Assembly: GCA_964016885.1 (NCBI GenBank)
Contig: OZ024747.1
Coordinates: 76,074,001 to 76,138,000, forward strand
Origin: Eledone cirrhosa
Lineage: Eukaryota
Reading direction: 5' to 3'
DNA length: 64,000 bases
The notes below the pieces were generated by a model that saw nothing but the letters and a program-made list of their open reading frames with translations, did no database searches and was not told the origin of the DNA. The translations under genes and the position numbers were made by a program. This document shows positions 5,445-61,097 of the stretch, in pieces. Every line of letters begins with the position of its first letter. Position 1 is the stretch's first letter.

Positions 5445-5686
<242 letters not shown>

Positions 5687-19793: not shown

Positions 19794-19975
19794 AGATGAG
19801 ATTCCACAGGACTAGAACTGTTTCATTCATTAGAAATCATCAGATTCCTGATGATTTCTAAAGAATGAAACAGTTCTAGTCCTGTAGAATCTCATCTATA
19901 TTAAAACTTGTATACTCTGCTATGTATTGAGTACCTTACTTACTGTGGTTACCTCCGATTCAACCCGGAATAACG
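19794..19975 (+). mobile_element. Fold-back HHR element, family C, copy 1
   Basis: ~100-bp palindrome whose right arm is an HHR; tail TACTC-TGC-tat-GTA-TT-GAGTA; in (TA)n; near-identical copies at 20001 and 56750. Confidence 0.85.
19842..19892 (+). ncRNA. Type I hammerhead ribozyme
   Basis: agattc-CTGATGA-t ttc taaa gaa t-GAAA-CAG ttctagtc CTG-TA-gaatct; all three stems pair; GUA site. Confidence 0.8.
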
Positions 19976-20000
19976 TATATATATATATATATATATATAT

Positions 20001-20183
20001 AGATGAGATTCTACAGGACTAGAACTGTTTCATTCATTAGAAATCATCAGGAATCCCTGATGATTTCTAATGAATGAAACAGTTCTAGTCCTGTAGAATC
20101 TCATCTATATTAAAACTGTTATACTCTGCTATGTATTGAGTACCTTACTTACTGTGGTTACCTCCGATTCAACCCGGAATAAC
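20001..20183 (+). mobile_element. Fold-back HHR element, family C, copy 2
   Basis: Near-identical to 19794-19975, with a different hairpin turn. Confidence 0.85.
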
Positions 20184-20289
<106 letters not shown>

Positions 20290-20402
20290 ACATATATATA
20301 CTTTTGAAAGTAATTACATATTGTCTAATTTGATAAATGTTATGATAGTTTATTATATTCATTTCAGCGCATTGATCAGAGGAAATGGCGAAAAGTATAT
20401 AT

Positions 20403-20900
20403 ATAAACGGAAAAAATGAAACGATATTTCATTTCCCACTCTTAGTACGGCTGTTAGCAACCACCGTTGCTCGTTTGTTCAACACTGACAAAGGAACGCT
20501 GTACTAGTTTCAAGCTTGTTAGCTATCGTCAGCAACGTATACCTTCCTGCCAGATTGTTGAACGTATATACTTACCTTATGCATATTAACGGCTGAGTAG
20601 CCCAATTTGCATATCGAGTGGATTAATCGGCCGGGTGCACCGAAAACGATAAACGGAAAAAATGAAACGATATTTCATTTCCCACTCTAGTACAGCGTTC
20701 CTTTGTCAGTGTTGAACAAACCAGCAACGGGGGTTGCTAGACACTACGGCTTAATACGGGATGTTTGTTTACAAATACACCGAGCATTATAATAAATGTT
20801 CGGTGAATCCATACGTGCATATATATATATGTGCATGTATGTATATATATACATACTACTGTACGTCTGTATACATATATGTATGTACGTGTACATACTT
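20403..20900 (-). mobile_element. Dispersed, diverged relative of the 468-bp array unit (just over one unit plus an inverted arm)
   Basis: Aligns by eye with the array unit; direct repeat aaacggaaaaaatgaaacgatatttcatttcccact with a 246-bp period; inverted arm ~20687-20900; HHR at 20497-20537. Confidence 0.9.
20497..20537 (-). ncRNA. Minimal type I hammerhead ribozyme
   Basis: Minus strand: cgttg-CTGACGA-t agc taacaa gct t-GAAA-CTAG-TA-cagcg. Confidence 0.85.
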
Positions 20901-36874: not shown

Positions 36875-36880
<6 letters not shown>

Positions 36881-39800
36881 TGAAACAAAATGAAAACGAA
36901 ATTTCATTTCTCACTCTTAGTATGGCACTTACTTAAATGTAAGTATGCATGTATACGTACATACATATATGTATACAGACGTACAGTAGCATGCACATAT
37001 ATATATATATATACATATATATATACATATGCATACAGGTACACATACATATATGCACGTATCAGTTTAGCGGCGCTAACGTCGCTTTGTTCGTTTGTAA
37101 ACAAACTGAACAGCCTGAATTTATGCCATACGGTGTTAAGGCAACCACGTCACCTTTTTGTTCAACACTGACACAGGAACGATGTACTAGTTTCAAGCTT
37201 GTTAGCTATCATCAGCACCGTTTACCCATCTGCCAGATAGTTGAACGTTCGAAAGTATATACTTTCCTTATGAAAATTAACGGCTGAGCAGCCTAATTTG
37301 CATATTGAGTGAGTTAAATCGGTCAGGCATACCGAAAACGATAAATTGAAACAAAATGAAAACGAAATTTCATTTCTCACTCTTAGTATGGCACTTACTT
37401 AAATGTAAGTATGCATGTATACGTACATACATATATGTATACAGACGTACAGTAGCATGCACATATATATATATATATATACATATATATATACATATGC
37501 ATACAGGTACACATACATATATGCACGTATCAGTTTAGCGGCGCTAACGTCGCTTTGTTCGTTTGTAAACAAACTGAACAGCCTGAATTTATGCCATACG
37601 GTGTTAAGGCAACCACGTCACCTTTTTGTTCAACACTGACACAGGAACGATGTACTAGTTTCAAGCTTGTTAGCTATCATCAGCACCGTTTACCCATCTG
37701 CCAGATAGTTGAACGTTCGAAAGTATATACATTCCTTATGAAAATTAACGGCTGAGCAGCCTAATTTGCATATTGAGTGAGTTAAATCGGTCAGGCATAC
37801 CGAAAACGATAAATTGAAACAAAATGAAAACGAAATTTCATTTCTCACTCTTAGTATGGCACTTACTTAAATGTAAGTATGCATGTATACGTACATACAT
37901 ATATGTATACAGACGTACAGTAGCATGCACATATATATATATATATATACATATATATATACATATGCATACAGGTACACATACATATATGCACGTATCA
38001 GTTTAGCGGCGCTAACGTCGCTTTGTTCGTTTGTAAACAAACTGAACAGCCTGAATTTATGCCATACGGTGTTAAGGCAACCACGTCACCTTTTTGTTCA
38101 ACACTGACACAGGAACGATGTACTAGTTTCAAGCTTGTTAGCTATCATCAGCACCGTTTACCCATCTGCCAGATAGTTGAACGTTCGAAAGTATATACTT
38201 TCCTTATGAAAATTAACGGCTGAGCAGCCTAATTTGCATATTGAGTGAGTTAAATCGGTCAGGCATACCGAAAACGATAAATTGAAACAAAATGAAAACG
38301 AAATTTCATTTCTCACTCTTAGTATGGCACTTACTTAAATGTAAGTATGCATGTATACGTACATACATATATGTATACAGACGTACAGTAGCATGCACAT
38401 ATATATATATATATATACATATATATATACATATGCATACAGGTACACATACATATATGCACGTATCAGTTTAGCGGCGCTAACGTCGCTTTGTTCGTTT
38501 GTAAACAAACTGAACAGCCTGAATTTATGCCATACGGTGTTAAGGCAACCACGTCACCTTTTTTGTTCAACACTGACACAGGAACGATGTACTAGTTTCA
38601 AGCTTGTTAGCTATCATCAGCACCGTTTACCCATCTGCCAGATAGTTGAACGTTCGAAAGTATATACTTTCCTTATGAAAATTAACGGCTGAGCAGCCTA
38701 ATTTGCATATTGAGTGAGTTAAATCGGTCAGGCATACCGAAAACGATAAATTGAAACAAAATGAAAACGAAATTTCATTTCTCACTCTTAGTATGGCACT
38801 TACTTAAATGTAAGTATGCATGTATACGTACATACATATATGTATACAGACGTACAGTAGCATGCACATATATATATATATATACATATATATATACATA
38901 TGCATACAGGTACACATACATATATGCACGTATCAGTTTAGCGGCGCTAACGTCGCTTTGTTCGTTTGTAAACAAACTGAACAGCCTGAATTTATGCCAT
39001 ACGGTGTTAAGGCAACCACGTCACCTTTTTGTTCAACACTGACACAGGAACGATGTACTAGTTTCAAGCTTGTTAGCTATCATCAGCACCGTTTACCCAT
39101 CTGCCAGATAGTTGAACGTTCGAAAGTATATACTTTCCTTATGAAAATTAACGGCTGAGCAGCCTAATTTGCATATTGAGTGAGTTAAATCGGTCAGGCA
39201 TACCGAAAACGATAAATTGAAACAAAATGAAAACGAAATTTCATTTCTCACTCTTAGTATGGCACTTACTTAAATGTAAGTATGCATGTATACGTACATA
39301 CATATATGTATACAGACGTACAGTAGCATGCACATATATATATATATATATACATATATATATACATATGCATACAGGTACACATACATATATGCACGTA
39401 TCAGTTTAGCGGCGCTAACGTCGCTTTGTTCGTTTGTAAACAAACTGAACAGCCTGAATTTATGCCATACGGTGTTAAGGCAACCACGTCACCTTTTTGT
39501 TCAACACTGACACAGGAACGATGTACTAGTTTCAAGCTTGTTAGCTATCATCAGCACCGTTTACCCATCTGCCAGATAGTTGAACGTTCGAAAGTATATA
39601 CATTCCTTATGAAAATTAACGGCTGAGCAGCCTAATTTGCATATTGAGTGAGTTAAATCGGTCAGGCATACCGAAAACGATAAATTGAAACAAAATGAAA
39701 ACGAAATTTCATTTCTCACTCTTAGTATGGCACTTACTTAAATGTAAGTATGCATGTATACGTACATACATATATGTATACAGACGTACAGTAGCATGCA

Positions 39801-42800
39801 CATATATATATATATATATACATATATATATACATATGCATACAGGTACACATACATATATGCACGTATCAGTTTAGCGGCGCTAACGTCGCTTTGTTCG
39901 TTTGTAAACAAACTGAACAGCCTGAATTTATGCCATACGGTGTTAAGGCAACCACGTCACCTTTTTGTTCAACACTGACACAGGAACGATGTACTAGTTT
40001 CAAGCTTGTTAGCTATCATCAGCACCGTTTACCCATCTGCCAGATAGTTGAACGTTCGAAAGTATATACTTTCCTTATGAAAATTAACGGCTGAGCAGCC
40101 TAATTTGCATATTGAGTGAGTTAAATCGGTCAGGCATACCGAAAACGATAAATTGAAACAAAATGAAAACGAAATTTCATTTCTCACTCTTAGTATGGCA
40201 CTTACTTAAATGTAAGTATGCATGTATACGTACATACATATATGTATACAGACGTACAGTAGCATGCACATATATATATATATATATATACATATATATA
40301 TACATATGCATACAGGTACACATACATATATGCACGTATCAGTTTAGCGGCGCTAACGTCGCTTTGTTCGTTTGTAAACAAACTGAACAGCCTGAATTTA
40401 TGCCATACGGTGTTAAGGCAACCACGTCACCTTTTTGTTCAACACTGACACAGGAACGATGTACTAGTTTCAAGCTTGTTAGCTATCATCAGCACCGTTT
40501 ACCCATCTGCCAGATAGTTGAACGTTCGAAAGTATATACATTCCTTATGAAAATTAACGGCTGAGCAGCCTAATTTGCATATTGAGTGAGTTAAATCGGT
40601 CAGGCATACCGAAAACGATAAATTGAAACAAAATGAAAACGAAATTTCATTTCTCACTCTTAGTATGGCACTTACTTAAATGTAAGTATGCATGTATACG
40701 TACATACATATATGTATACAGACGTACAGTAGCATGCACATATATATATATATATATACATATATATATACATATGCATACAGGTACACATACATATATG
40801 CACGTATCAGTTTAGCGGCGCTAACGTCGCTTTGTTCGTTTGTAAACAAACTGAACAGCCTGAATTTATGCCATACGGTGTTAAGGCAACCACGTCACCT
40901 TTTTGTTCAACACTGACACAGGAACGATGTACTAGTTTCAAGCTTGTTAGCTATCATCAGCACCGTTTACCCATCTGCCAGATAGTTGAACGTTCGAAAG
41001 TATATACTTTCCTTATGAAAATTAACGGCTGAGCAGCCTAATTTGCATATTGAGTGAGTTAAATCGGTCAGGCATACCGAAAACGATAAATTGAAACAAA
41101 ATGAAAACGAAATTTCATTTCTCACTCTTAGTATGGCACTTACTTAAATGTAAGTATGCATGTATACGTACATACATATATGTATACAGACGTACAGTAG
41201 CATGCACATATATATATATATATATACATATATATATACATATGCATACAGGTACACATACATATATGCACGTATCAGTTTAGCGGCGCTAACGTCGCTT
41301 TGTTCGTTTGTAAACAAACTGAACAGCCTGAATTTATGCCATACGGTGTTAAGGCAACCACGTCACCTTTTTGTTCAACACTGACACAGGAACGATGTAC
41401 TAGTTTCAAGCTTGTTAGCTATCATCAGCACCGTTTACCCATCTGCCAGATAGTTGAACGTTCGAAAGTATATACATTCCTTATGAAAATTAACGGCTGA
41501 GCAGCCTAATTTGCATATTGAGTGAGTTAAATCGGTCAGGCATACCGAAAACGATAAATTGAAACAAAATGAAAACGAAATTTCATTTCTCACTCTTAGT
41601 ATGGCACTTACTTAAATGTAAGTATGCATGTATACGTACATACATATATGTATACAGACGTACAGTAGCATGCACATATATATATATATATATACATATA
41701 TATATACATATGCATACAGGTACACATACATATATGCACGTATCAGTTTAGCGGCGCTAACGTCGCTTTGTTCGTTTGTAAACAAACTGAACAGCCTGAA
41801 TTTATGCCATACGGTGTTAAGGCAACCACGTCACCTTTTTGTTCAACACTGACACAGGAACGATGTACTAGTTTCAAGCTTGTTAGCTATCATCAGCACC
41901 GTTTACCCATCTGCCAGATAGTTGAACGTTCGAAAGTATATACTTTCCTTATGAAAATTAACGGCTGAGCAGCCTAATTTGCATATTGAGTGAGTTAAAT
42001 CGGTCAGGCATACCGAAAACGATAAATTGAAACAAAATGAAAACGAAATTTCATTTCTCACTCTTAGTATGGCACTTACTTAAATGTAAGTATGCATGTA
42101 TACGTACATACATATATGTATACAGACGTACAGTAGCATGCACATATATATATATATATATACATATATATATACATATGCATACAGGTACACATACATA
42201 TATGCACGTATCAGTTTAGCGGCGCTAACGTCGCTTTGTTCGTTTGTAAACAAACTGAACAGCCTGAATTTATGCCATACGGTGTTAAGGCAACCACGTC
42301 ACCTTTTTTGTTCAACACTGACACAGGAACGATGTACTAGTTTCAAGCTTGTTAGCTATCATCAGCACCGTTTACCCATCTGCCAGATAGTTGAACGTTC
42401 GAAAGTATATACTTTCCTTATGAAAATTAACGGCTGAGCAGCCTAATTTGCATATTGAGTGAGTTAAATCGGTCAGGCATACCGAAAACGATAAATTGAA
42501 ACAAAATGAAAACGAAATTTCATTTCTCACTCTTAGTATGGCACTTACTTAAATGTAAGTATGCATGTATACGTACATACATATATGTATACAGACGTAC
42601 AGTAGCATGCACATATATATATATATATACATATATATATACATATGCATACAGGTACACATACATATATGCACGTATCAGTTTAGCGGCGCTAACGTCG
42701 CTTTGTTCGTTTGTAAACAAACTGAACAGCCTGAATTTATGCCATACGGTGTTAAGGCAACCACGTCACCTTTTTGTTCAACACTGACACAGGAACGATG

Positions 42801-45800
42801 TACTAGTTTCAAGCTTGTTAGCTATCATCAGCACCGTTTACCCATCTGCCAGATAGTTGAACGTTCGAAAGTATATACTTTCCTTATGAAAATTAACGGC
42901 TGAGCAGCCTAATTTGCATATTGAGTGAGTTAAATCGGTCAGGCATACCGAAAACGATAAATTGAAACAAAATGAAAACGAAATTTCATTTCTCACTCTT
43001 AGTATGGCACTTACTTAAATGTAAGTATGCATGTATACGTACATACATATATGTATACAGACGTACAGTAGCATGCACATATATATATATATATATACAT
43101 ATATATATACATATGCATACAGGTACACATACATATATGCACGTATCAGTTTAGCGGCGCTAACGTCGCTTTGTTCGTTTGTAAACAAACTGAACAGCCT
43201 GAATTTATGCCATACGGTGTTAAGGCAACCACGTCACCTTTTTGTTCAACACTGACACAGGAACGATGTACTAGTTTCAAGCTTGTTAGCTATCATCAGC
43301 ACCGTTTACCCATCTGCCAGATAGTTGAACGTTCGAAAGTATATACATTCCTTATGAAAATTAACGGCTGAGCAGCCTAATTTGCATATTGAGTGAGTTA
43401 AATCGGTCAGGCATACCGAAAACGATAAATTGAAACAAAATGAAAACGAAATTTCATTTCTCACTCTTAGTATGGCACTTACTTAAATGTAAGTATGCAT
43501 GTATACGTACATACATATATGTATACAGACGTACAGTAGCATGCACATATATATATATATATATACATATATATATACATATGCATACAGGTACACATAC
43601 ATATATGCACGTATCAGTTTAGCGGCGCTAACGTCGCTTTGTTCGTTTGTAAACAAACTGAACAGCCTGAATTTATGCCATACGGTGTTAAGGCAACCAC
43701 GTCACCTTTTTGTTCAACACTGACACAGGAACGATGTACTAGTTTCAAGCTTGTTAGCTATCATCAGCACCGTTTACCCATCTGCCAGATAGTTGAACGT
43801 TCGAAAGTATATACTTTCCTTATGAAAATTAACGGCTGAGCAGCCTAATTTGCATATTGAGTGAGTTAAATCGGTCAGGCATACCGAAAACGATAAATTG
43901 AAACAAAATGAAAACGAAATTTCATTTCTCACTCTTAGTATGGCACTTACTTAAATGTAAGTATGCATGTATACGTACATACATATATGTATACAGACGT
44001 ACAGTAGCATGCACATATATATATATATATATATACATATATATATACATATGCATACAGGTACACATACATATATGCACGTATCAGTTTAGCGGCGCTA
44101 ACGTCGCTTTGTTCGTTTGTAAACAAACTGAACAGCCTGAATTTATGCCATACGGTGTTAAGGCAACCACGTCACCTTTTTGTTCAACACTGACACAGGA
44201 ACGATGTACTAGTTTCAAGCTTGTTAGCTATCATCAGCACCGTTTACCCATCTGCCAGATAGTTGAACGTTCGAAAGTATATACATTCCTTATGAAAATT
44301 AACGGCTGAGCAGCCTAATTTGCATATTGAGTGAGTTAAATCGGTCAGGCATACCGAAAACGATAAATTGAAACAAAATGAAAACGAAATTTCATTTCTC
44401 ACTCTTAGTATGGCACTTACTTAAATGTAAGTATGCATGTATACGTACATACATATATGTATACAGACGTACAGTAGCATGCACATATATATATATATAT
44501 ATACATATATATATACATATGCATACAGGTACACATACATATATGCACGTATCAGTTTAGCGGCGCTAACGTCGCTTTGTTCGTTTGTAAACAAACTGAA
44601 CAGCCTGAATTTATGCCATACGGTGTTAAGGCAACCACGTCACCTTTTTGTTCAACACTGACACAGGAACGATGTACTAGTTTCAAGCTTGTTAGCTATC
44701 ATCAGCACCGTTTACCCATCTGCCAGATAGTTGAACGTTCGAAAGTATATACTTTCCTTATGAAAATTAACGGCTGAGCAGCCTAATTTGCATATTGAGT
44801 GAGTTAAATCGGTCAGGCATACCGAAAACGATAAATTGAAACAAAATGAAAACGAAATTTCATTTCTCACTCTTAGTATGGCACTTACTTAAATGTAAGT
44901 ATGCATGTATACGTACATACATATATGTATACAGACGTACAGTAGCATGCACATATATATATATATATATACATATATATATACATATGCATACAGGTAC
45001 ACATACATATATGCACGTATCAGTTTAGCGGCGCTAACGTCGCTTTGTTCGTTTGTAAACAAACTGAACAGCCTGAATTTATGCCATACGGTGTTAAGGC
45101 AACCACGTCACCTTTTTGTTCAACACTGACACAGGAACGATGTACTAGTTTCAAGCTTGTTAGCTATCATCAGCACCGTTTACCCATCTGCCAGATAGTT
45201 GAACGTTCGAAAGTATATACATTCCTTATGAAAATTAACGGCTGAGCAGCCTAATTTGCATATTGAGTGAGTTAAATCGGTCAGGCATACCGAAAACGAT
45301 AAATTGAAACAAAATGAAAACGAAATTTCATTTCTCACTCTTAGTATGGCACTTACTTAAATGTAAGTATGCATGTATACGTACATACATATATGTATAC
45401 AGACGTACAGTAGCATGCACATATATATATATATATATACATATATATATACATATGCATACAGGTACACATACATATATGCACGTATCAGTTTAGCGGC
45501 GCTAACGTCGCTTTGTTCGTTTGTAAACAAACTGAACAGCCTGAATTTATGCCATACGGTGTTAAGGCAACCACGTCACCTTTTTGTTCAACACTGACAC
45601 AGGAACGATGTACTAGTTTCAAGCTTGTTAGCTATCATCAGCACCGTTTACCCATCTGCCAGATAGTTGAACGTTCGAAAGTATATACTTTCCTTATGAA
45701 AATTAACGGCTGAGCAGCCTAATTTGCATATTGAGTGAGTTAAATCGGTCAGGCATACCGAAAACGATAAATTGAAACAAAATGAAAACGAAATTTCATT

Positions 45801-48800
45801 TCTCACTCTTAGTATGGCACTTACTTAAATGTAAGTATGCATGTATACGTACATACATATATGTATACAGACGTACAGTAGCATGCACATATATATATAT
45901 ATATATACATATATATATACATATGCATACAGGTACACATACATATATGCACGTATCAGTTTAGCGGCGCTAACGTCGCTTTGTTCGTTTGTAAACAAAC
46001 TGAACAGCCTGAATTTATGCCATACGGTGTTAAGGCAACCACGTCACCTTTTTTGTTCAACACTGACACAGGAACGATGTACTAGTTTCAAGCTTGTTAG
46101 CTATCATCAGCACCGTTTACCCATCTGCCAGATAGTTGAACGTTCGAAAGTATATACTTTCCTTATGAAAATTAACGGCTGAGCAGCCTAATTTGCATAT
46201 TGAGTGAGTTAAATCGGTCAGGCATACCGAAAACGATAAATTGAAACAAAATGAAAACGAAATTTCATTTCTCACTCTTAGTATGGCACTTACTTAAATG
46301 TAAGTATGCATGTATACGTACATACATATATGTATACAGACGTACAGTAGCATGCACATATATATATATATATACATATATATATACATATGCATACAGG
46401 TACACATACATATATGCACGTATCAGTTTAGCGGCGCTAACGTCGCTTTGTTCGTTTGTAAACAAACTGAACAGCCTGAATTTATGCCATACGGTGTTAA
46501 GGCAACCACGTCACCTTTTTGTTCAACACTGACACAGGAACGATGTACTAGTTTCAAGCTTGTTAGCTATCATCAGCACCGTTTACCCATCTGCCAGATA
46601 GTTGAACGTTCGAAAGTATATACTTTCCTTATGAAAATTAACGGCTGAGCAGCCTAATTTGCATATTGAGTGAGTTAAATCGGTCAGGCATACCGAAAAC
46701 GATAAATTGAAACAAAATGAAAACGAAATTTCATTTCTCACTCTTAGTATGGCACTTACTTAAATGTAAGTATGCATGTATACGTACATACATATATGTA
46801 TACAGACGTACAGTAGCATGCACATATATATATATATATATACATATATATATACATATGCATACAGGTACACATACATATATGCACGTATCAGTTTAGC
46901 GGCGCTAACGTCGCTTTGTTCGTTTGTAAACAAACTGAACAGCCTGAATTTATGCCATACGGTGTTAAGGCAACCACGTCACCTTTTTGTTCAACACTGA
47001 CACAGGAACGATGTACTAGTTTCAAGCTTGTTAGCTATCATCAGCACCGTTTACCCATCTGCCAGATAGTTGAACGTTCGAAAGTATATACATTCCTTAT
47101 GAAAATTAACGGCTGAGCAGCCTAATTTGCATATTGAGTGAGTTAAATCGGTCAGGCATACCGAAAACGATAAATTGAAACAAAATGAAAACGAAATTTC
47201 ATTTCTCACTCTTAGTATGGCACTTACTTAAATGTAAGTATGCATGTATACGTACATACATATATGTATACAGACGTACAGTAGCATGCACATATATATA
47301 TATATATATACATATATATATACATATGCATACAGGTACACATACATATATGCACGTATCAGTTTAGCGGCGCTAACGTCGCTTTGTTCGTTTGTAAACA
47401 AACTGAACAGCCTGAATTTATGCCATACGGTGTTAAGGCAACCACGTCACCTTTTTGTTCAACACTGACACAGGAACGATGTACTAGTTTCAAGCTTGTT
47501 AGCTATCATCAGCACCGTTTACCCATCTGCCAGATAGTTGAACGTTCGAAAGTATATACTTTCCTTATGAAAATTAACGGCTGAGCAGCCTAATTTGCAT
47601 ATTGAGTGAGTTAAATCGGTCAGGCATACCGAAAACGATAAATTGAAACAAAATGAAAACGAAATTTCATTTCTCACTCTTAGTATGGCACTTACTTAAA
47701 TGTAAGTATGCATGTATACGTACATACATATATGTATACAGACGTACAGTAGCATGCACATATATATATATATATATACATATATATATACATATGCATA
47801 CAGGTACACATACATATATGCACGTATCAGTTTAGCGGCGCTAACGTCGCTTTGTTCGTTTGTAAACAAACTGAACAGCCTGAATTTATGCCATACGGTG
47901 TTAAGGCAACCACGTCACCTTTTTGTTCAACACTGACACAGGAACGATGTACTAGTTTCAAGCTTGTTAGCTATCATCAGCACCGTTTACCCATCTGCCA
48001 GATAGTTGAACGTTCGAAAGTATATACATTCCTTATGAAAATTAACGGCTGAGCAGCCTAATTTGCATATTGAGTGAGTTAAATCGGTCAGGCATACCGA
48101 AAACGATAAATTGAAACAAAATGAAAACGAAATTTCATTTCTCACTCTTAGTATGGCACTTACTTAAATGTAAGTATGCATGTATACGTACATACATATA
48201 TGTATACAGACGTACAGTAGCATGCACATATATATATATATACATATATATATACATATGCATACAGGTACACATACATATATGCACGTATCAGTTTAGC
48301 GGCGCTAACGTCGCTTTGTTCGTTTGTAAACAAACTGAACAGCCTGAATTTATGCCATACGGTGTTAAGGCAACCACGTCACCTTTTTGTTCAACACTGA
48401 CACAGGAACGATGTACTAGTTTCAAGCTTGTTAGCTATCATCAGCACCGTTTACCCATCTGCCAGATAGTTGAACGTTCGAAAGTATATACTTTCCTTAT
48501 GAAAATTAACGGCTGAGCAGCCTAATTTGCATATTGAGTGAGTTAAATCGGTCAGGCATACCGAAAACGATAAATTGAAACAAAATGAAAACGAAATTTC
48601 ATTTCTCACTCTTAGTATGGCACTTACTTAAATGTAAGTATGCATGTATACGTACATACATATATGTATACAGACGTACAGTAGCATGCACATATATATA
48701 TATATATATACATATATATATACATATGCATACAGGTACACATACATATATGCACGTATCAGTTTAGCGGCGCTAACGTCGCTTTGTTCGTTTGTAAACA

Positions 48801-50558
48801 AACTGAACAGCCTGAATTTATGCCATACGGTGTTAAGGCAACCACGTCACCTTTTTTGTTCAACACTGACACAGGAACGATGTACTAGTTTCAAGCTTGT
48901 TAGCTATCATCAGCACCGTTTACCCATCTGCCAGATAGTTGAACGTTCGAAAGTATATACTTTCCTTATGAAAATTAACGGCTGAGCAGCCTAATTTGCA
49001 TATTGAGTGAGTTAAATCGGTCAGGCATACCGAAAACGATAAATTGAAACAAAATGAAAACGAAATTTCATTTCTCACTCTTAGTATGGCACTTACTTAA
49101 ATGTAAGTATGCATGTATACGTACATACATATATGTATACAGACGTAGAGTAGCATGCACATATATATATATATATACATATATATATACATATGCATAC
49201 AGGTACACATACATATATGCACGTATCAGTTTAGCGGCGCTAACGTCGCTTTGTTCGTTTGTAAACAAACTGAACAGCCTGAATTTATGCCATACGGTGT
49301 TAAGGCAACCACGTCACCTTTTTGTTCAACACTGACACAGGAACGATGTACTAGTTTCAAGCTTGTTAGCTATCATCAGCACCGTTTACCCATCTGCCAG
49401 ATAGTTGAACGTTCGAAAGTATATACTTTCCTTATGAAAATTAACGGCTGAGCAGCCTAATTTGCATATTGAGTGAGTTAAATCGGTCAGGCATACCGAA
49501 AACGATAAATTGAAACAAAATGAAAACGAAATTTCATTTCTCACTCTTAGTATGGCACTTACTTAAATGTAAGTATGCATGTATACGTACATACATATAT
49601 GTATACAGACGTACAGTAGCATGCACATATATATATATATATACATATATATATACATATGCATACAGGTACACATACATATATGCACGTATCAGTTTAG
49701 CGGCGCTAACGTCGCTTTGTTCGTTTGTAAACAAACTGAACAGCCTGAATTTATGCCATACGGTGTTAAGGCAACCACGTCACCTTTTTGTTCAACACTG
49801 ACACAGGAACGATGTACTAGTTTCAAGCTTGTTAGCTATCATCAGCACCGTTTACCCATCTGCCAGATAGTTGAACGTTCGAAAGTATATACTTTCCTTA
49901 TGAAAATTAACGGCTGAGCAACCTAATTTGCATATTGAGTGAGTTAAATCGGTCAGGCATACCGAAAACGATAAATTGAAACAAAATGAAAACGAAATTT
50001 CATTTCTCACTCTTAGTATGGCACTTACTTAAATGTAAGTATGCATGTATACGTACATACATATATGTATACAGACGTACAATAGCATGCACATATATAT
50101 ATATATATACATATATATATACATATGCATACAGGTACACATACATATATGCACGTATCAGTTTAGCGGCGCTAACGTCGCTTTGTTCGTTTGTAAACAA
50201 ACTGAACAGCCTGAATTTATGCCATACGGTGTTAAGGCAACCACGTCACCTTTTTGTTCAACACTGACACAGGAACGATGTACTAGTTTCAAGCTTGTTA
50301 GCTATCATCAGCACCGTTTACCCATCTGCCAGATAGTTGAACGTTCGAAAGTATATACTTTCCTTATGAAAATTAACGGCTGAGCAGCCTAATTTGCATA
50401 TTGAGTGAGTTAAATCGGTCAGGCATACCGAAAACGATAAATTGAAACAAAATGAAAACGAAATTTCATTTTTCACTCTTAGTATGGCACTTACTTAAAT
50501 GTAAGTATGCATGTATACGTACATACATATATGTATACAGACGTACAGTAGCATGCAC

Positions 50559-50589
<31 letters not shown>

Positions 50590-51233
50590 CATATGCATAC
50601 AGGTACACATACATATATGCACGTATCAGTTTAGCGGCGCTAACGTCGCTTTGTTCGTTTGTAAACAAACTGAACAGCCTGAATTTATGCCATACGGTGT
50701 TAAGGTAACCACGTCACCTTTTTGTTCAACACTGACACAGGAACGATGTACTAGTTTCAAGCTTGTTAGCTATCATCAGCACCGTTTACCCATCTGCCAG
50801 ATAGTTGAACGTTCGAAAGTATATACTTTCCTTATGAAAATTAACGGCTGAGCAGCCTAATTTGCATATTGAGTGAGTTAAATCGGTCAGGCATACCGAA
50901 AACGATAAATTGAAACAAAATGAAAACGAAATTTCATTTCTCACTCTTAGTATGGCACTTACTTAAATGTAAGTATGCATGTATACGTACATACATATAT
51001 GTATACAGACGTACAGTAGCATGCACATATATATATATATATACATATATATATACATATGCATACAGGTACACATACATATATGCACGTATCAGTTTAG
51101 CGGCGCTAACGTCGCTTTGTTCGTTTGTAAACAAACTGAACAGCCTGAATTTATGCCATACGGTGTTAAGGCAACCACGTCACCTTTTTGTTCAACACTG
51201 ACACAGGAACGATGTACTAGTTTCAAGCTTGTT
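36875..51233 (-). repeat. Tandem array of ~468-bp HHR-containing units (30 full plus one partial); retrozyme-like concatemer
   Basis: ORF-track starts recur every 464-470 bp from 36890 to 50920; units nearly identical; one HHR per full unit on the minus strand; the whole insertion is flanked by (TA)n. Confidence 0.95.
37180..37220 (-). ncRNA. Minimal type I hammerhead ribozyme (first of 30 copies in the array)
   Basis: Minus strand: cggtg-CTGATGA-t agc taacaa gct t-GAAA-CTAG-TA^catcg; stem I cggtg/catcg; palindromic stem III ACTAGT; predicted cut between 37185 and 37184. Confidence 0.9.
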
Positions 51234-51539: not shown

Positions 51540-52479
51540 TGTTATAGTTGGGGAGGGTCATATTGTTGTAATAATATTGCCAGAAATAATAACAGAACAT
51601 ACTCACTGTTTGGTTGGTTTTCGCTTCTGTATCTTTTATATCTCCACAGTTAATTTATTTGGCAATCAATGTTTATCATTGATTGACCAACGGTTAAAAA
51701 TACAGATATAAATATAAAAAGTTTTGAAGCGATCACATTTTAGTTTAGAACATTTATTAGCTGACGATTGTTTCTTCCAGAGGGAAGTCTGGATTCATCG
51801 GAGCATAAGGAATGTCGAAACATGTAACTAAAATCCTAGTCATTTAAAATTTTTAGGCTACATAATTGTTATTAGTGTCAAAGGTATCATGTGGAGAGTC
51901 AGGAGTTAAAAAGATGTTCTGCTTGAAGAACACAATTACAGGTAGCACTGGTTTATAATTAAAAAGCACAAGCAAAAAATATCATAAGCTAGATAAAACC
52001 ACAGGCAGAAAAGTTATAATACAGTCAATAAGGCATGTATGAGGAAAGAGTTATAATGCAGTTGAAGTACATATATTTTGTGTGGGGTGTGAAAGCATGT
52101 TATAATTGTTATAAATAGTTAAGATAGTGTGCAATTTGTTAGAGAGGCATGTGGTGATAATGTAGGTATTTGTTATGTAAGGTATAATGCAAAGCACACG
52201 ATACAGTTGGGTATGTGATTTTCATTTAAGTGTTTTTGTGTTGTAGTTCGTATGTATGTGTGTATGTTGTTTGTTACTCACAGCTATTAACCATGGGATT
52301 ATTTTGAGTCGTTTATAGTCAATAGGTGTTTGTTTGTTAAATGTAAATTCCGCCGAATTACTGGCAATGTTGTTATTTTAGGTATATTATTTTATGCATT
52401 TTTTATCTACAAATTATCTTTTCTAGGGTTTGTATTAACCGTTATTAAGCTGTTGGTGAATATAAATATATATATATAG

Positions 52480-53995: not shown

Positions 53996-54026
<31 letters not shown>

Positions 54027-54484
54027 GTATCCCTACATGCAAAATGCATATAGGGACACATGTATTATCCAACCGTATGCCAATGTGGTTCTATGGCAGG
54101 TCAATAAATTAACGAGCCAGAACATATATAATCAAGGTTTAGCAAATAGGAAAAAGTTTTAAAATAAATTTTAAAAAGTTCTCTGTACCAGCTGTAAATA
54201 CCCTTACCGTACGGTTTCAAGACTCGAAATAAATGGATAATCCATACGGAAATGGATAATCCATACGGAAATCCATTGAAAAGGAAGACTTTCGTCAGAG
54301 GGTTCTTTTCAGTCCGAGATTATAAAATTCCCGAGTTCAAATCACGAACTGGCGCCATTCAAAATTGTCCTCGAGATGAGAGTATATGATGAAGAAGCAA
54401 TTCTGTCTAGTGCCGTGTGTAAAGATAGAAGGCAGAGGCGGAAAGGTCAATCTACTGCCACTAGAAATAGCAGCAGTTAAAACA

Positions 54485-56368: not shown

Positions 56369-56372
<4 letters not shown>

Positions 56373-56730
56373 ATGAATTAACGGAGCCATGGGCCCTCGC
56401 CATTCCCTGTAAATAATGTGCTCAAAGGAAAAGTCCTGAGCTCTTTAAAATACAATATGTTCAAAAGGTAACACACCAGAGAGAGATATACAGTGCGCTA
56501 TCAATAAAACAGGGAAAAAAACACTAGTGTATGGAATCTATAACCTATGAAAGGCAGACTATAAACACGTTAATTAAAAATATAAATTAAATCGTAAATA
56601 AATACCTCTATAACTATATAACACACGTACAAATCCAATGAGATGTTTCGCCAGTAATTTGTTGACAGAAATGGAGTAACCTCGGTTCATCAGCGTGTGT
56701 AAGGCTATACATTTCAGACAACACTATAAC
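56369..56730 (-). mobile_element. HHR plus tail element (distinct family)
   Basis: Minus strand: CTGATGA (56693-56687)...GAAAC; tail GCTC-AGGA-cttt-TCCT-TT-GAGC at 56441-56420; in (TA)n. Confidence 0.7.
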
Positions 56731-56749
56731 AATATATATATATATATAT

Positions 56750-56932
56750 AGATGAGATTCTACAGGACTAGAACTGCTTCATTCTTTAGAAATCATCAGG
56801 AATCCTGATGATTTCTAAAGAATGAAACAGTTCTAGTCCTGTAGAATCTCATCTATATTAAAACTGTTATACTCTGCAATGTATTGAGTACCTTACTTAC
56901 TGTGGTTACCTCCGATTCAACCCGGAATAACG
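56750..56932 (+). mobile_element. Fold-back HHR element, family C, copy 3
   Basis: Near-identical to 19794-19975. Confidence 0.85.
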
Positions 56933-56933
56933 C

Positions 56934-58553: not shown

Positions 58554-58751
<198 letters not shown>

Positions 58752-58870
58752 TGTACTCCAATGTTACTAGGTAGTCGCATTGGATGGAGTCAACTGACGT
58801 CGGAGATTGCTCAACGTATAATAAAATATAATAAAATATGTTTTAAAATCCGGAGAAAATATGAAGAAGA

Positions 58871-60426
58871 AGGTGGTTCAATAACATCAGTGACAAAAAC
58901 AAATCTTCTTTTATTCAATTCGATATAGATGAATACTATTCCTCTATTTCACCTGAAACTCTGCATTCGCTAAGGTTAACTCGGACCTCACAAACGAGGA
59001 TATTAATATTATACTTGAAGCTAGACGCACAGTAGTCCATTTTGAAAATAGTTATTGGGTCCGCAGAGATAGACCCTCGGAATTTGACATTACGATGGGT
59101 TCTAATGATTCGGCGGAAGTTACGGATTTGGTTGGAATCTATATAGCTCACAGACTCCAGAGCGAATTTATTGACCTCCACGGCGGAATCTACCGTGATG
59201 ATGCACTCCTATTAGTCAAAAATATGAACAAACAAAACCTAGAAAGGCGACGTAAAAACATTAGGAAACTTTTCTTAGAACTAGGACTTAGTATTACCTT
59301 CGAACACAATCTTAAAGTGGTCAATTTCTTGGATGTCACCTTCAACCTTAATAACGGTAATATAAAGCCATTTCACAAACTTAATGAAAATCTCAAATAC
59401 GTTAATGTAAGATCGAACCATCCCCATTCCATTATTAAATCTATCCCTAAAAATATATCCGTAAGGATCTCCCGACTATCGTCTAATTTGCAGACCTTCA
59501 ACGAGCATGCTGAGTATTATAACGACGCACTTAGAAAAGCTGGTTACTGCGAGAAAATAGAATATCTAGAAGATAACCACATAGGTACTATGAATAAATC
59601 ACATCTAAGTCGAACTAGTATTGCACCACACAGACACATTAATAGGCATAATAATAGGTGCAAACCAACAAATAGAGTTATACGTAGAGAGTACATATGG
59701 TATAACCCCGTGTACAATATTTCTATTAGCACTAAGATTATCTCGCAATTATATACACTGATCAATAAACACTTTACAACTTCACATAAATACTATAAAA
59801 TCTTAAACGCGCGCACCATTAGACTCTCATACTCCACTGCACCTAACATAGAACAACTAATTAAAAAGCTCAACTCAACAATACTAAATAAGTACATCCC
59901 TAATGACACAGCGCATCAGCATAGCGACATACAACGCACTAACACGCAGCTACAACCCCACCAAACTATCCAGGATACTACTGCAAAACATAAAAATAAC
60001 TGTAACTGCACTAAACCAGGTTCGTGCCCATTGAATAACCAATGCCTAACACGCAATATTGTCTACCGATGTACAATAAATTCCGGAACCAACAAATGGT
60101 ATTACGTCGGATGTACCGCAACATCTTTCAAAGCTCGCTTATACCAACATCGATCTTCGATCAAGCATGAGAAAATGCGCTCCGTAACAACCCTCGCCGA
60201 TAAAGCCTGGCAGCTTCGGAAGAACAATCAAGCATTCTCCCTTGATTGGCAAATTATTACAGTTGCGCCAGCATATAAGCAAAATCACCGATTTTGTAAA
60301 TTATGCAATATGGAGATATACTGCATTTTAATGTCGGAAAACAAACTTTTGAACAGCAAAATTGAACGTTCACTTTACTGTGACCATCGTTTAAAAATGA
60401 CTTTTTCTTTTTTTAAATGCATATAA
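58871..60426 (+). pseudogene. PLE reverse transcriptase-GIY-YIG protein, N-truncated and frameshifted at ~58962
   Basis: WFNNI..FIQFDIDEYYSSIS, frameshift, FDITMGSNDSAEVTDLVG, GIYRDD, VNFLDVT, SNHP, IWYNP, CNC-x5-CPL-x3-C linker, IVY..YVG..FKARLYQH, CKLCNME. The 59095-60426 ORF is its open part. Confidence 0.9.
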
Positions 60427-60854
60427 TGTTATCTTTTTACACGACCATTTGCAAATTTTTATTATTTTTATTTCATATTTTTATATGTTTATACACACGA
60501 TATCGCTTTTTATAATAATAGCACTAAACACTGTTTTTTAGACCCCTTTAGAAATATCCTGCTACTATAATAGCCCCAATAACTTTTCTATTATTCTGTA
60601 CTACATTGACCCCTTTAACTAAATTTTGTCCAAACAACACCACTAGAAGAATTTACTTCCCCCGCCACCCCTAACACGCCTCATTTAGCTAACTGCTGCC
60701 AAAACATTTTCTTCTATACAATCTCTACTACCCTGACAGTCTTGAATCCTAAGACTATCTCCCCCTTACTCGCTTCCCTCTTTCTCTTCCCTCCCTACCT
60801 CCTACTTTCTCACATATCTAGTGTATAAAATATTCTCCTATCATTCTACCATAA

Positions 60855-60971
60855 AGGTCTGACGACATGGTGTGTTCTCTTACAGTATACCTACGATTCA
60901 TGATAATATTTTTATATTATACAAATAGCGAGGTATAGGTAACCCACACACTATAGAAACAATTGTTACCT
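60855..60971 (+). ncRNA. Type I hammerhead ribozyme in the PLE 3' repeat, long stem II
   Basis: aggt-CTGACGA-c atggtgtg...cacactat a-GAAA-CAATTG-TT-acct. Confidence 0.8.
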
Positions 60972-61013
60972 AGTAAATTCTTTATACCCGCATCTCCGTT
61001 TCATAAACTTCTT

Positions 61014-61070
<57 letters not shown>

Positions 61071-61097
61071 CATATATATATAGTAATAATAATATAT

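Follow-up and report, generated by a model that had tools for sequence, protein, structure and literature searches.

A defective Hydra-clade PLE of Eledone cirrhosa and a predicted tail hairpin between two fixed ends

The DNA stretch analyzed here, 64,000 nucleotides of Eledone cirrhosa contig OZ024747.1 (the window), harbors a dead copy, 5'-truncated and frameshifted, of a high-copy PLE family of the Hydra clade, F1, inserted in a (TA)n tract. Reverse transcription likely started twice to produce this copy, on either side of a predicted RNA hairpin. Read from left to right, the window displays a (TA)n target tract (58701-58748), a 121-nt segment, a truncated RT-endonuclease frame, a 3' UTR, a hammerhead, AAACTTCTTCTT and a second (TA)n target tract (61017-61082). 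The 121-nt segment belongs to an inverted arm made of the family tail (58749-58872, minus strand), which extends from the long end of the family, E2, adjoining the TA tract, crosses the short end, E1, and halts ~9-10 nt beyond. On the minus strand it opens with CTTCTTCTT-CATATTTT-CTCCG, and it contains the predicted tail hairpin (58810-58855, minus strand), CTC-CG-loop-CG-TT-GAG with a 2-nt 3' bulge and a 10-nt duplication in the loop, the folding of which is weak when taken alone (z -0.73). A preliminary description placed the start of this segment at 58752; the position falls within the tail, but the left edge of the element lies at ~58749-58751, as GA(T) is still part of the match to the family tail. 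The ensuing frame (58874-60426, plus strand) is a 5'-truncated Hydra-clade ORF that enters at codon 240 of 760 and comprises RT motifs A-E, the thumb, a CxCx5C linker and a C-terminal endonuclease of the GIY-YIG type, devoid of CCHH. The frame 58957-60426 (489 codons) carries YRDD, FDITMGSNDSAE and CNC-x5-CP. The copy is indeed defective, as first described, with codons 1-239 of 760 missing and, taking the intact copy L012 as reference, a 13-nt frameshifting deletion after position 58966. Downstream are the 3' UTR, or pseudo-LTR body (60427-60854, plus strand), and a type I hammerhead (60855-60971, plus strand; z -2.95) with stem I AGGT/ACCT, the core CTGACGA...GAAA, a palindromic stem III and an extended stem II of ~90 nt, predicted to cleave after 60967. 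Rfam at its gathering threshold reports no match in the window, this hammerhead included. The last segment (60972-61016, plus strand) reaches E1 49 nt past the predicted cleavage site, with AAACTTCTTCTT at 61016 followed by (TA)n.

The inverted segment was proposed to continue the 3' end of the element with an overlap of only ~9 nt, and to follow that end in tandem copies. Sister copies in the 3.0 Gb genome bear this out. Of 90,705 first-look candidates from the F1 protein search of the genome, 87 were scored, and display 89-100% identity. A search of sequencing runs listed three DNA entries and no RNA one. Of 29 other F1 loci that were fetched, 17 carry the 58752-58872 reverse complement immediately after the 3' end and in matching orientation, the two overlapping by about 9 nt, and a 33-nt pattern spanning the predicted F1 junction returns 35 exact matches genome-wide versus none for its reversed control. 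The segment is thus the family's own tail. Tandem F1 copies exhibit a repeat unit of 3003-3017 bp (about 3.0 kb), within which the tail constitutes the 5' UTR leading into the next ORF. Open frames of 771-784 codons, with RWK, DKT, YRDD, CxCx5C and CxxC, are present in 8 of 30 F1 loci, and the best database homologues of the F1 protein are 36-40% identical over the full length.

The window element had been called a Naiad-like PLE. PLE it is, but the motif alignment on which the F1 domain calls rest identifies F1 as a new family of the known Hydra clade, and not as a Naiad. According to the accessible text of PMC8557442, Hydra elements are defined by a C-terminal endonuclease without CCHH, by RWK, DKT, CxCx5C, CxxC and CxH, by a hammerhead and by insertion into (TA)n, whereas Naiads possess an N-terminal endonuclease with CCHH, the DKA motif and no canonical hammerhead. 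Intact F1 ORFs begin directly with the RT-associated N-terminus, without the N-terminal endonuclease of Naiads, and the alignment assigns them an RT followed by a C-terminal GIY-YIG endonuclease in a single ORF. RWK and DKT are found as IRWKA and ADKTS, the latter in place of DKA, and the linker reads CNCTKPGSC, with CKLC and CDH/CNH around conserved E and N. The endonuclease has one Cys between IVY and YVG, and no CCHH. The F1 RT4(B) motif is divergent (FDITMGSNDSAE) and devoid of IFD, and the 62 residues from the motif A Asp to MG come close, by eye, to the spacing of the Hydra rows in the supplement of PMC8557442; Naiad RT4 is GIPMG or GIPQG, once GVPMG, in the same supplement. The full type I hammerhead, with its predicted cleavage, is canonical as in Hydra, and so is the insertion into (TA)n. 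Therefore, the order of RT and C-terminal endonuclease, together with RWK, DKT, CxCx5C, the lack of CCHH and the hammerhead, assigns F1 to the Hydra clade. The YRDD, TMGS-type and CNC-x5-CP motifs, initially read as Naiad marks, occur in Hydra proteins: all 15 YRDD and all 9 TMGS matches in the supplement text of PMC8557442, where long runs are cut, belong to them. Pfam analysis reports no significant family for the window frame, for the full F1 and F5 proteins and for 11 of 12 alignment members, one homologue matching DUF5855. A profile of 99 homologues returns no match among PDB chains, and the Pfam and PDB sequence searches give no significant RT or GIY-YIG match for the F1 protein.

With the Hydra clade as described in the accessible parts of PMC8557442, F1 has in common the single ORF with its RT and C-terminal GIY-YIG domains, RWK, DKT and divergent RT4, the CxCx5C, CxxC and CxH motifs without CCHH, the canonical hammerhead, the (TA)n target, the inverted 5' arms and the tail at one end. 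Judged by eye, it is a family distinct from the six published Hydra consensi, and its unit of about 3.0 kb matches the upper size limit of the clade (PMC8557442). In contrast, its tail measures 100-115 nt as compared with 30-40 in the published clade, from which F1 also differs by its stem II of about 90 nt, its high copy number and the coexistence of at least seven families in one genome. The PLE structure, the (TA)n preference, the inverted arms and the tail are shared with Naiads as well; unlike F1, these contain an N-terminal endonuclease with CCHH, DKA and usually IFD, lack a canonical hammerhead and span 3.4-4.4 kb (accessible text of PMC8557442).

F1 copies terminate at two fixed ends about 100-115 nt apart, located 49-50 nt (E1) or ~155-175 nt (E2) past the predicted cleavage site. 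Bimodal ends are found in six hammerhead families, the hairpin beginning about 2-15 nt after E1. By analogy with the Poseidon element discussed below, E1 and E2 would be reverse-transcription start sites. Scanning the window and 285 loci (1.18 Mb) for hammerheads yielded 332 motifs, and the pattern CTC-stem-loop-stem-NN-GAG is present in 9 of the 26 hammerhead families with at least 70 nt downstream versus 0.69 expected from shuffles, or in 6 of 23 without F1 and the short families A and B, from which the pattern was derived after inspection; it is missing from the other 17 of the 26. A bulge of 2 nt is favored, with 9 families as compared with 1, 4, 2 and 1 families for bulges of 0, 1, 3 and 4 nt, respectively. 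The inner stems are wholly different between families yet complementary. Among the Hydra-ORF-linked tails tested, 5 of 6 possess the hairpin, including that of a metagenome contig (the one locus of the metagenome scan), the miss being a mutated F5 copy with an intact ORF. Inspected by eye, three of the six published Hydra consensi (Hydra-2_Amil, Hydra-1_Ajap and Hydra-2_Ajap; accessible parts of PMC8557442) exhibit a clear hairpin and Hydra-1_Crog one with a single mismatch, none being evident in the other two. The folding energy is weak (z -0.73 for F1 and -0.33 for family A), so folding alone lends no support, and the minimum-energy fold places the hairpin in a shifted register. A MAFFT alignment of six tails left the hairpins unaligned. 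The tail hairpin that had been proposed for this element, and proposed to be common to short hammerhead families, is upheld, with a predicted hairpin in F1 as well as in families A and B.

The two ends are distributed over the arms of head-to-head insertions in a near-obligate manner. Across F1, F4, A and B, E1 on one arm is paired with E2 on the other in 65 of 67 classifiable two-arm insertions, a count made on loci not selected for the tail that leaves out the window itself (L001) and three array loci, with 4 further cases containing an unclassified arm. When each distinct junction class is counted once, 55 of 58 show the E1/E2 combination (p about 1e-13 versus 50%). With F1 considered separately, the combination is found in 4 of 5 unselected insertions, plus 6 of 7 in a tail-selected set. 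The window copy is the extreme case, its E2 arm stopping about 9 nt beyond E1, and similar tail-only inverted arms recur in F4 and A. The junction contains no TA spacer. In the accessible text of Craig et al. 2021 (PMC8557442), the tail is often at one end, with nothing further on pairing. Neither the E1/E2 pairing rule nor a cross-family hairpin with a 2-nt 3' bulge between two end sites was found in the literature covered by our search, subscription papers and bioRxiv supplements lying outside it. The hairpin pattern and the E1/E2 pairing are both consistent with reverse transcription starting in pairs around a hairpin that would bind the protein, a mechanism that we infer.

In the corresponding mechanism, a transcript running through a tandem junction would carry the hammerhead, E1, the hairpin and E2. 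The protein, probably as a dimer, would bind the hairpin and nick both (TA)n strands, as suggested by Poseidon in vitro (PMC11167929). One RT would start just 5' of the hairpin, at E1, and would have copied about 2.1 kb in the window element, while the other would start 3' of the hairpin, at E2, and would have stopped there after about 120 nt; the two cDNAs would then be joined head to head. Early stops, often at the hammerhead, would result in truncated arms, and early stops on both arms in short palindromic elements. Among the closest known systems is the Poseidon element PAc of Anolis. According to the accessible text of Frangieh et al. 2024 (PMC11167929), its RT has two internal start sites, which delimit the genomic tail; cleavage and extension take place on both strands, and the protein is predicted to form a dimer. 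F1, with its two putative starts and the tail between them, resembles PAc in this layout and in its AT-rich target. However, PAc belongs to a different clade and its starts lie in an AC-rich stem-loop within the ORF, whereas both F1 ends are located in non-coding sequence before the start codon, and that text mentions no arm-pairing rule and no cross-family hairpin. Whether the model extends to the clade as a whole, with a common Hydra RNA recognition hairpin (CTC/GAG with a 2-nt 3' bulge), visible by eye in coral and sea-cucumber consensi too, a dimeric enzyme bound to it and one cDNA start per side and per DNA end, seems to us evenly balanced.

Regarding arrays, a 468-bp unit is repeated about 31 times at 36875-51233 of the window, with 99% identity. 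Its type I hammerhead lies on the minus strand, and the array is bordered on the right by an inverted arm; this array is retrozyme-like and its family is devoid of the tail hairpin. Flip-flop arrays are observed at L102:1535-2547, L106:1514-2618 and L111:1-1719, in which inverted pieces of 47-58 nt, corresponding to the 5' half of the F1 hammerhead, alternate with a period of about 93 bp. Those of L102 and L106 are bounded by E2 at one side and E1 at the other, which suggests repeated snap-back synthesis. Further hammerhead elements of the window are located at 54000-54310 (minus), 56370-56740 (minus), 51540-51900 (plus) and 20400-20800 (minus); the hammerhead at about 56693 is accompanied by the hairpin, while the one at about 54298 shows no match to the pattern.

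The genome carries at least seven Hydra families, and the parents of several short hammerhead elements are among them. Family A is the main short hammerhead family of the window and shares no sequence with the F1 element. The window contains a palindromic copy of it (56751-56933, plus strand), representing the 3' end of Hydra family F5, and two more A copies at about 19795-20185. Genome-wide, one core pattern of family A is matched exactly 1,775 times. Family A runs about 500 nt upstream, up to a microsatellite beyond which the F5 ORF is found, collinear with A in 4 of 30 loci, and in 5 of 16 stretches A immediately precedes the F5 start, in one case with a 759-codon open frame. Family A is therefore the terminal repeat of autonomous family F5, the protein of which is 41% identical to that of F1. 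Two earlier readings were dropped on this account: A as an ORF-less family (no sense ORF within 1.5 kb in 30 loci), as the F5 ORF lies past the long microsatellite, and the A/F5 inversions as cross-family chimeras, as F5 is the parent of A. The end of F6 accounts for another short family, and F4 produces its own short palindromes. Family B (5447-5578, plus strand) has the end layout of F1 and carries the hairpin. No coding parent was found for it in 25 loci, in 30 loci and in 16 stretches extended by about 6 kb, the sole Hydra piece near B among the 25 loci (L153) lying downstream, behind a TA run. With about 70-90% identity, B is older, so that its parent may have decayed. The accessible parts of PMC7229834 and 10.64898/2026.07.22.740005 describe non-LTR retrozymes which, like A and B, are short type I hammerhead repeats akin to PLE terminal repeats, and a derivation of short hammerhead repeats from such terminal repeats has already been put forward in the latter source. 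Retrozymes form tandem arrays, whereas copies of A and B are scattered over (TA)n tracts as monomers or palindromes, and an ORF-bearing parent has been identified for A.

As side observations on these families, the F5 3' UTR contains a mixed (TA/TG)n tract of 0.7 to several kb (L274-L276, L234, L254, L256, L261), within which many copies end, and one tandem F5 unit measures about 8.5 kb. At L140:1290-1530, the F5 terminal repeat gives way to about 100 nt from the F5 endonuclease region and then resumes, likely a template jump. F4 (L172-L201, e.g. L189) has many intact copies that are nearly identical to one another; its unit measures about 3.53 kb, its hammerhead core is non-canonical, and it is likely the youngest family seen. 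Lastly, a family A arm is joined head to head, without TA spacer, to an F7 arm (L218:1364-2320) and to an F6 arm (L332:390-3600; L231/L332), possibly by cross-family co-insertion with some cross-mobilization.

A common hairpin might allow Hydra proteins, possibly that of F1, to mobilize RNAs other than their own, including those of the orphan family B and of secondary palindromic masters of A, a reading that we regard as doubtful. The spacerless A/F7 and A/F6 joins point in this direction, as do the lack of any ORF upstream of B in all three sets of loci and the 98-100% identity of 40 scored A copies to the window A copy. However, of 104 head-to-head junctions that a script scored, 103 unite arms of one family, with none of the 15 F1 junctions mixed and no A/F1 or B/F1 junction among them, and the cross-family joins could be later insertions. 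The parent of B may have decayed, and A, with at least 17 distinct palindrome junctions, has been remade repeatedly. Moreover, the A and B hairpins are closer to the hairpin of F4 than to that of F1. In the reading that we favor, most short hammerhead elements would be products of the same kind as this F1 copy, which other Hydra families generate from RNA of their own.

It is improbable that the inverted tail is an independent second insertion or a later rearrangement, with a hairpin that arose by chance or acts at the DNA level, for instance as an endonuclease site. The Penelope tail has been reported to be necessary for DNA recognition by the endonuclease (cited in the accessible text of PMC11167929), which together with the weak folding energy would fit such a site, but the lack of a TA spacer at the junction, the near-obligate E1/E2 pairing, the complementarity retained by entirely different inner stems and the preference for a 2-nt bulge argue against this reading. 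The initial proposal of a Naiad-type element whose protein mobilizes the short hammerhead elements of the window in trans is very improbable, and is refuted as regards Naiad identity and family A: the end layout and tail hairpin common to F1, A and B and the proposal of retrozymes as non-autonomous PLE derivatives (accessible text of 10.64898/2026.07.22.740005) would suit it, but the element has a C-terminal endonuclease, a hammerhead and DKT instead of DKA, the F1 terminal repeat displays no meaningful similarity to six short families of the window (best E 0.013 over 24 nt on the opposite strand), and A and the F6-derived family have autonomous parents of their own. A weaker version, in which Hydra-clade proteins make the short hammerhead elements, is supported.

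The window element itself is an ordinary dead copy, and its reassignment from Naiad to Hydra matters chiefly for annotation. Hammerhead elements that look non-autonomous can simply represent the termini of autonomous families with a long microsatellite in the 3' UTR. From the accessible texts of PMC8557442 and PMC11167929, how PLEs choose their RNA, and what makes their insertions inverted and tailed at a single end, are open questions in the field. If the clade-wide reading is true, the shared hairpin and the paired starts would explain the one-end tail, the inverted arms, the palindromic short hammerhead elements and the occasional cross-family chimeras. A hairpin between fixed ends and the near-obligate pairing of short and long ends make the question of the PLE mechanism testable in vitro, and the intact young copies of several Hydra families that coexist in this one genome may be used to address its specificity.
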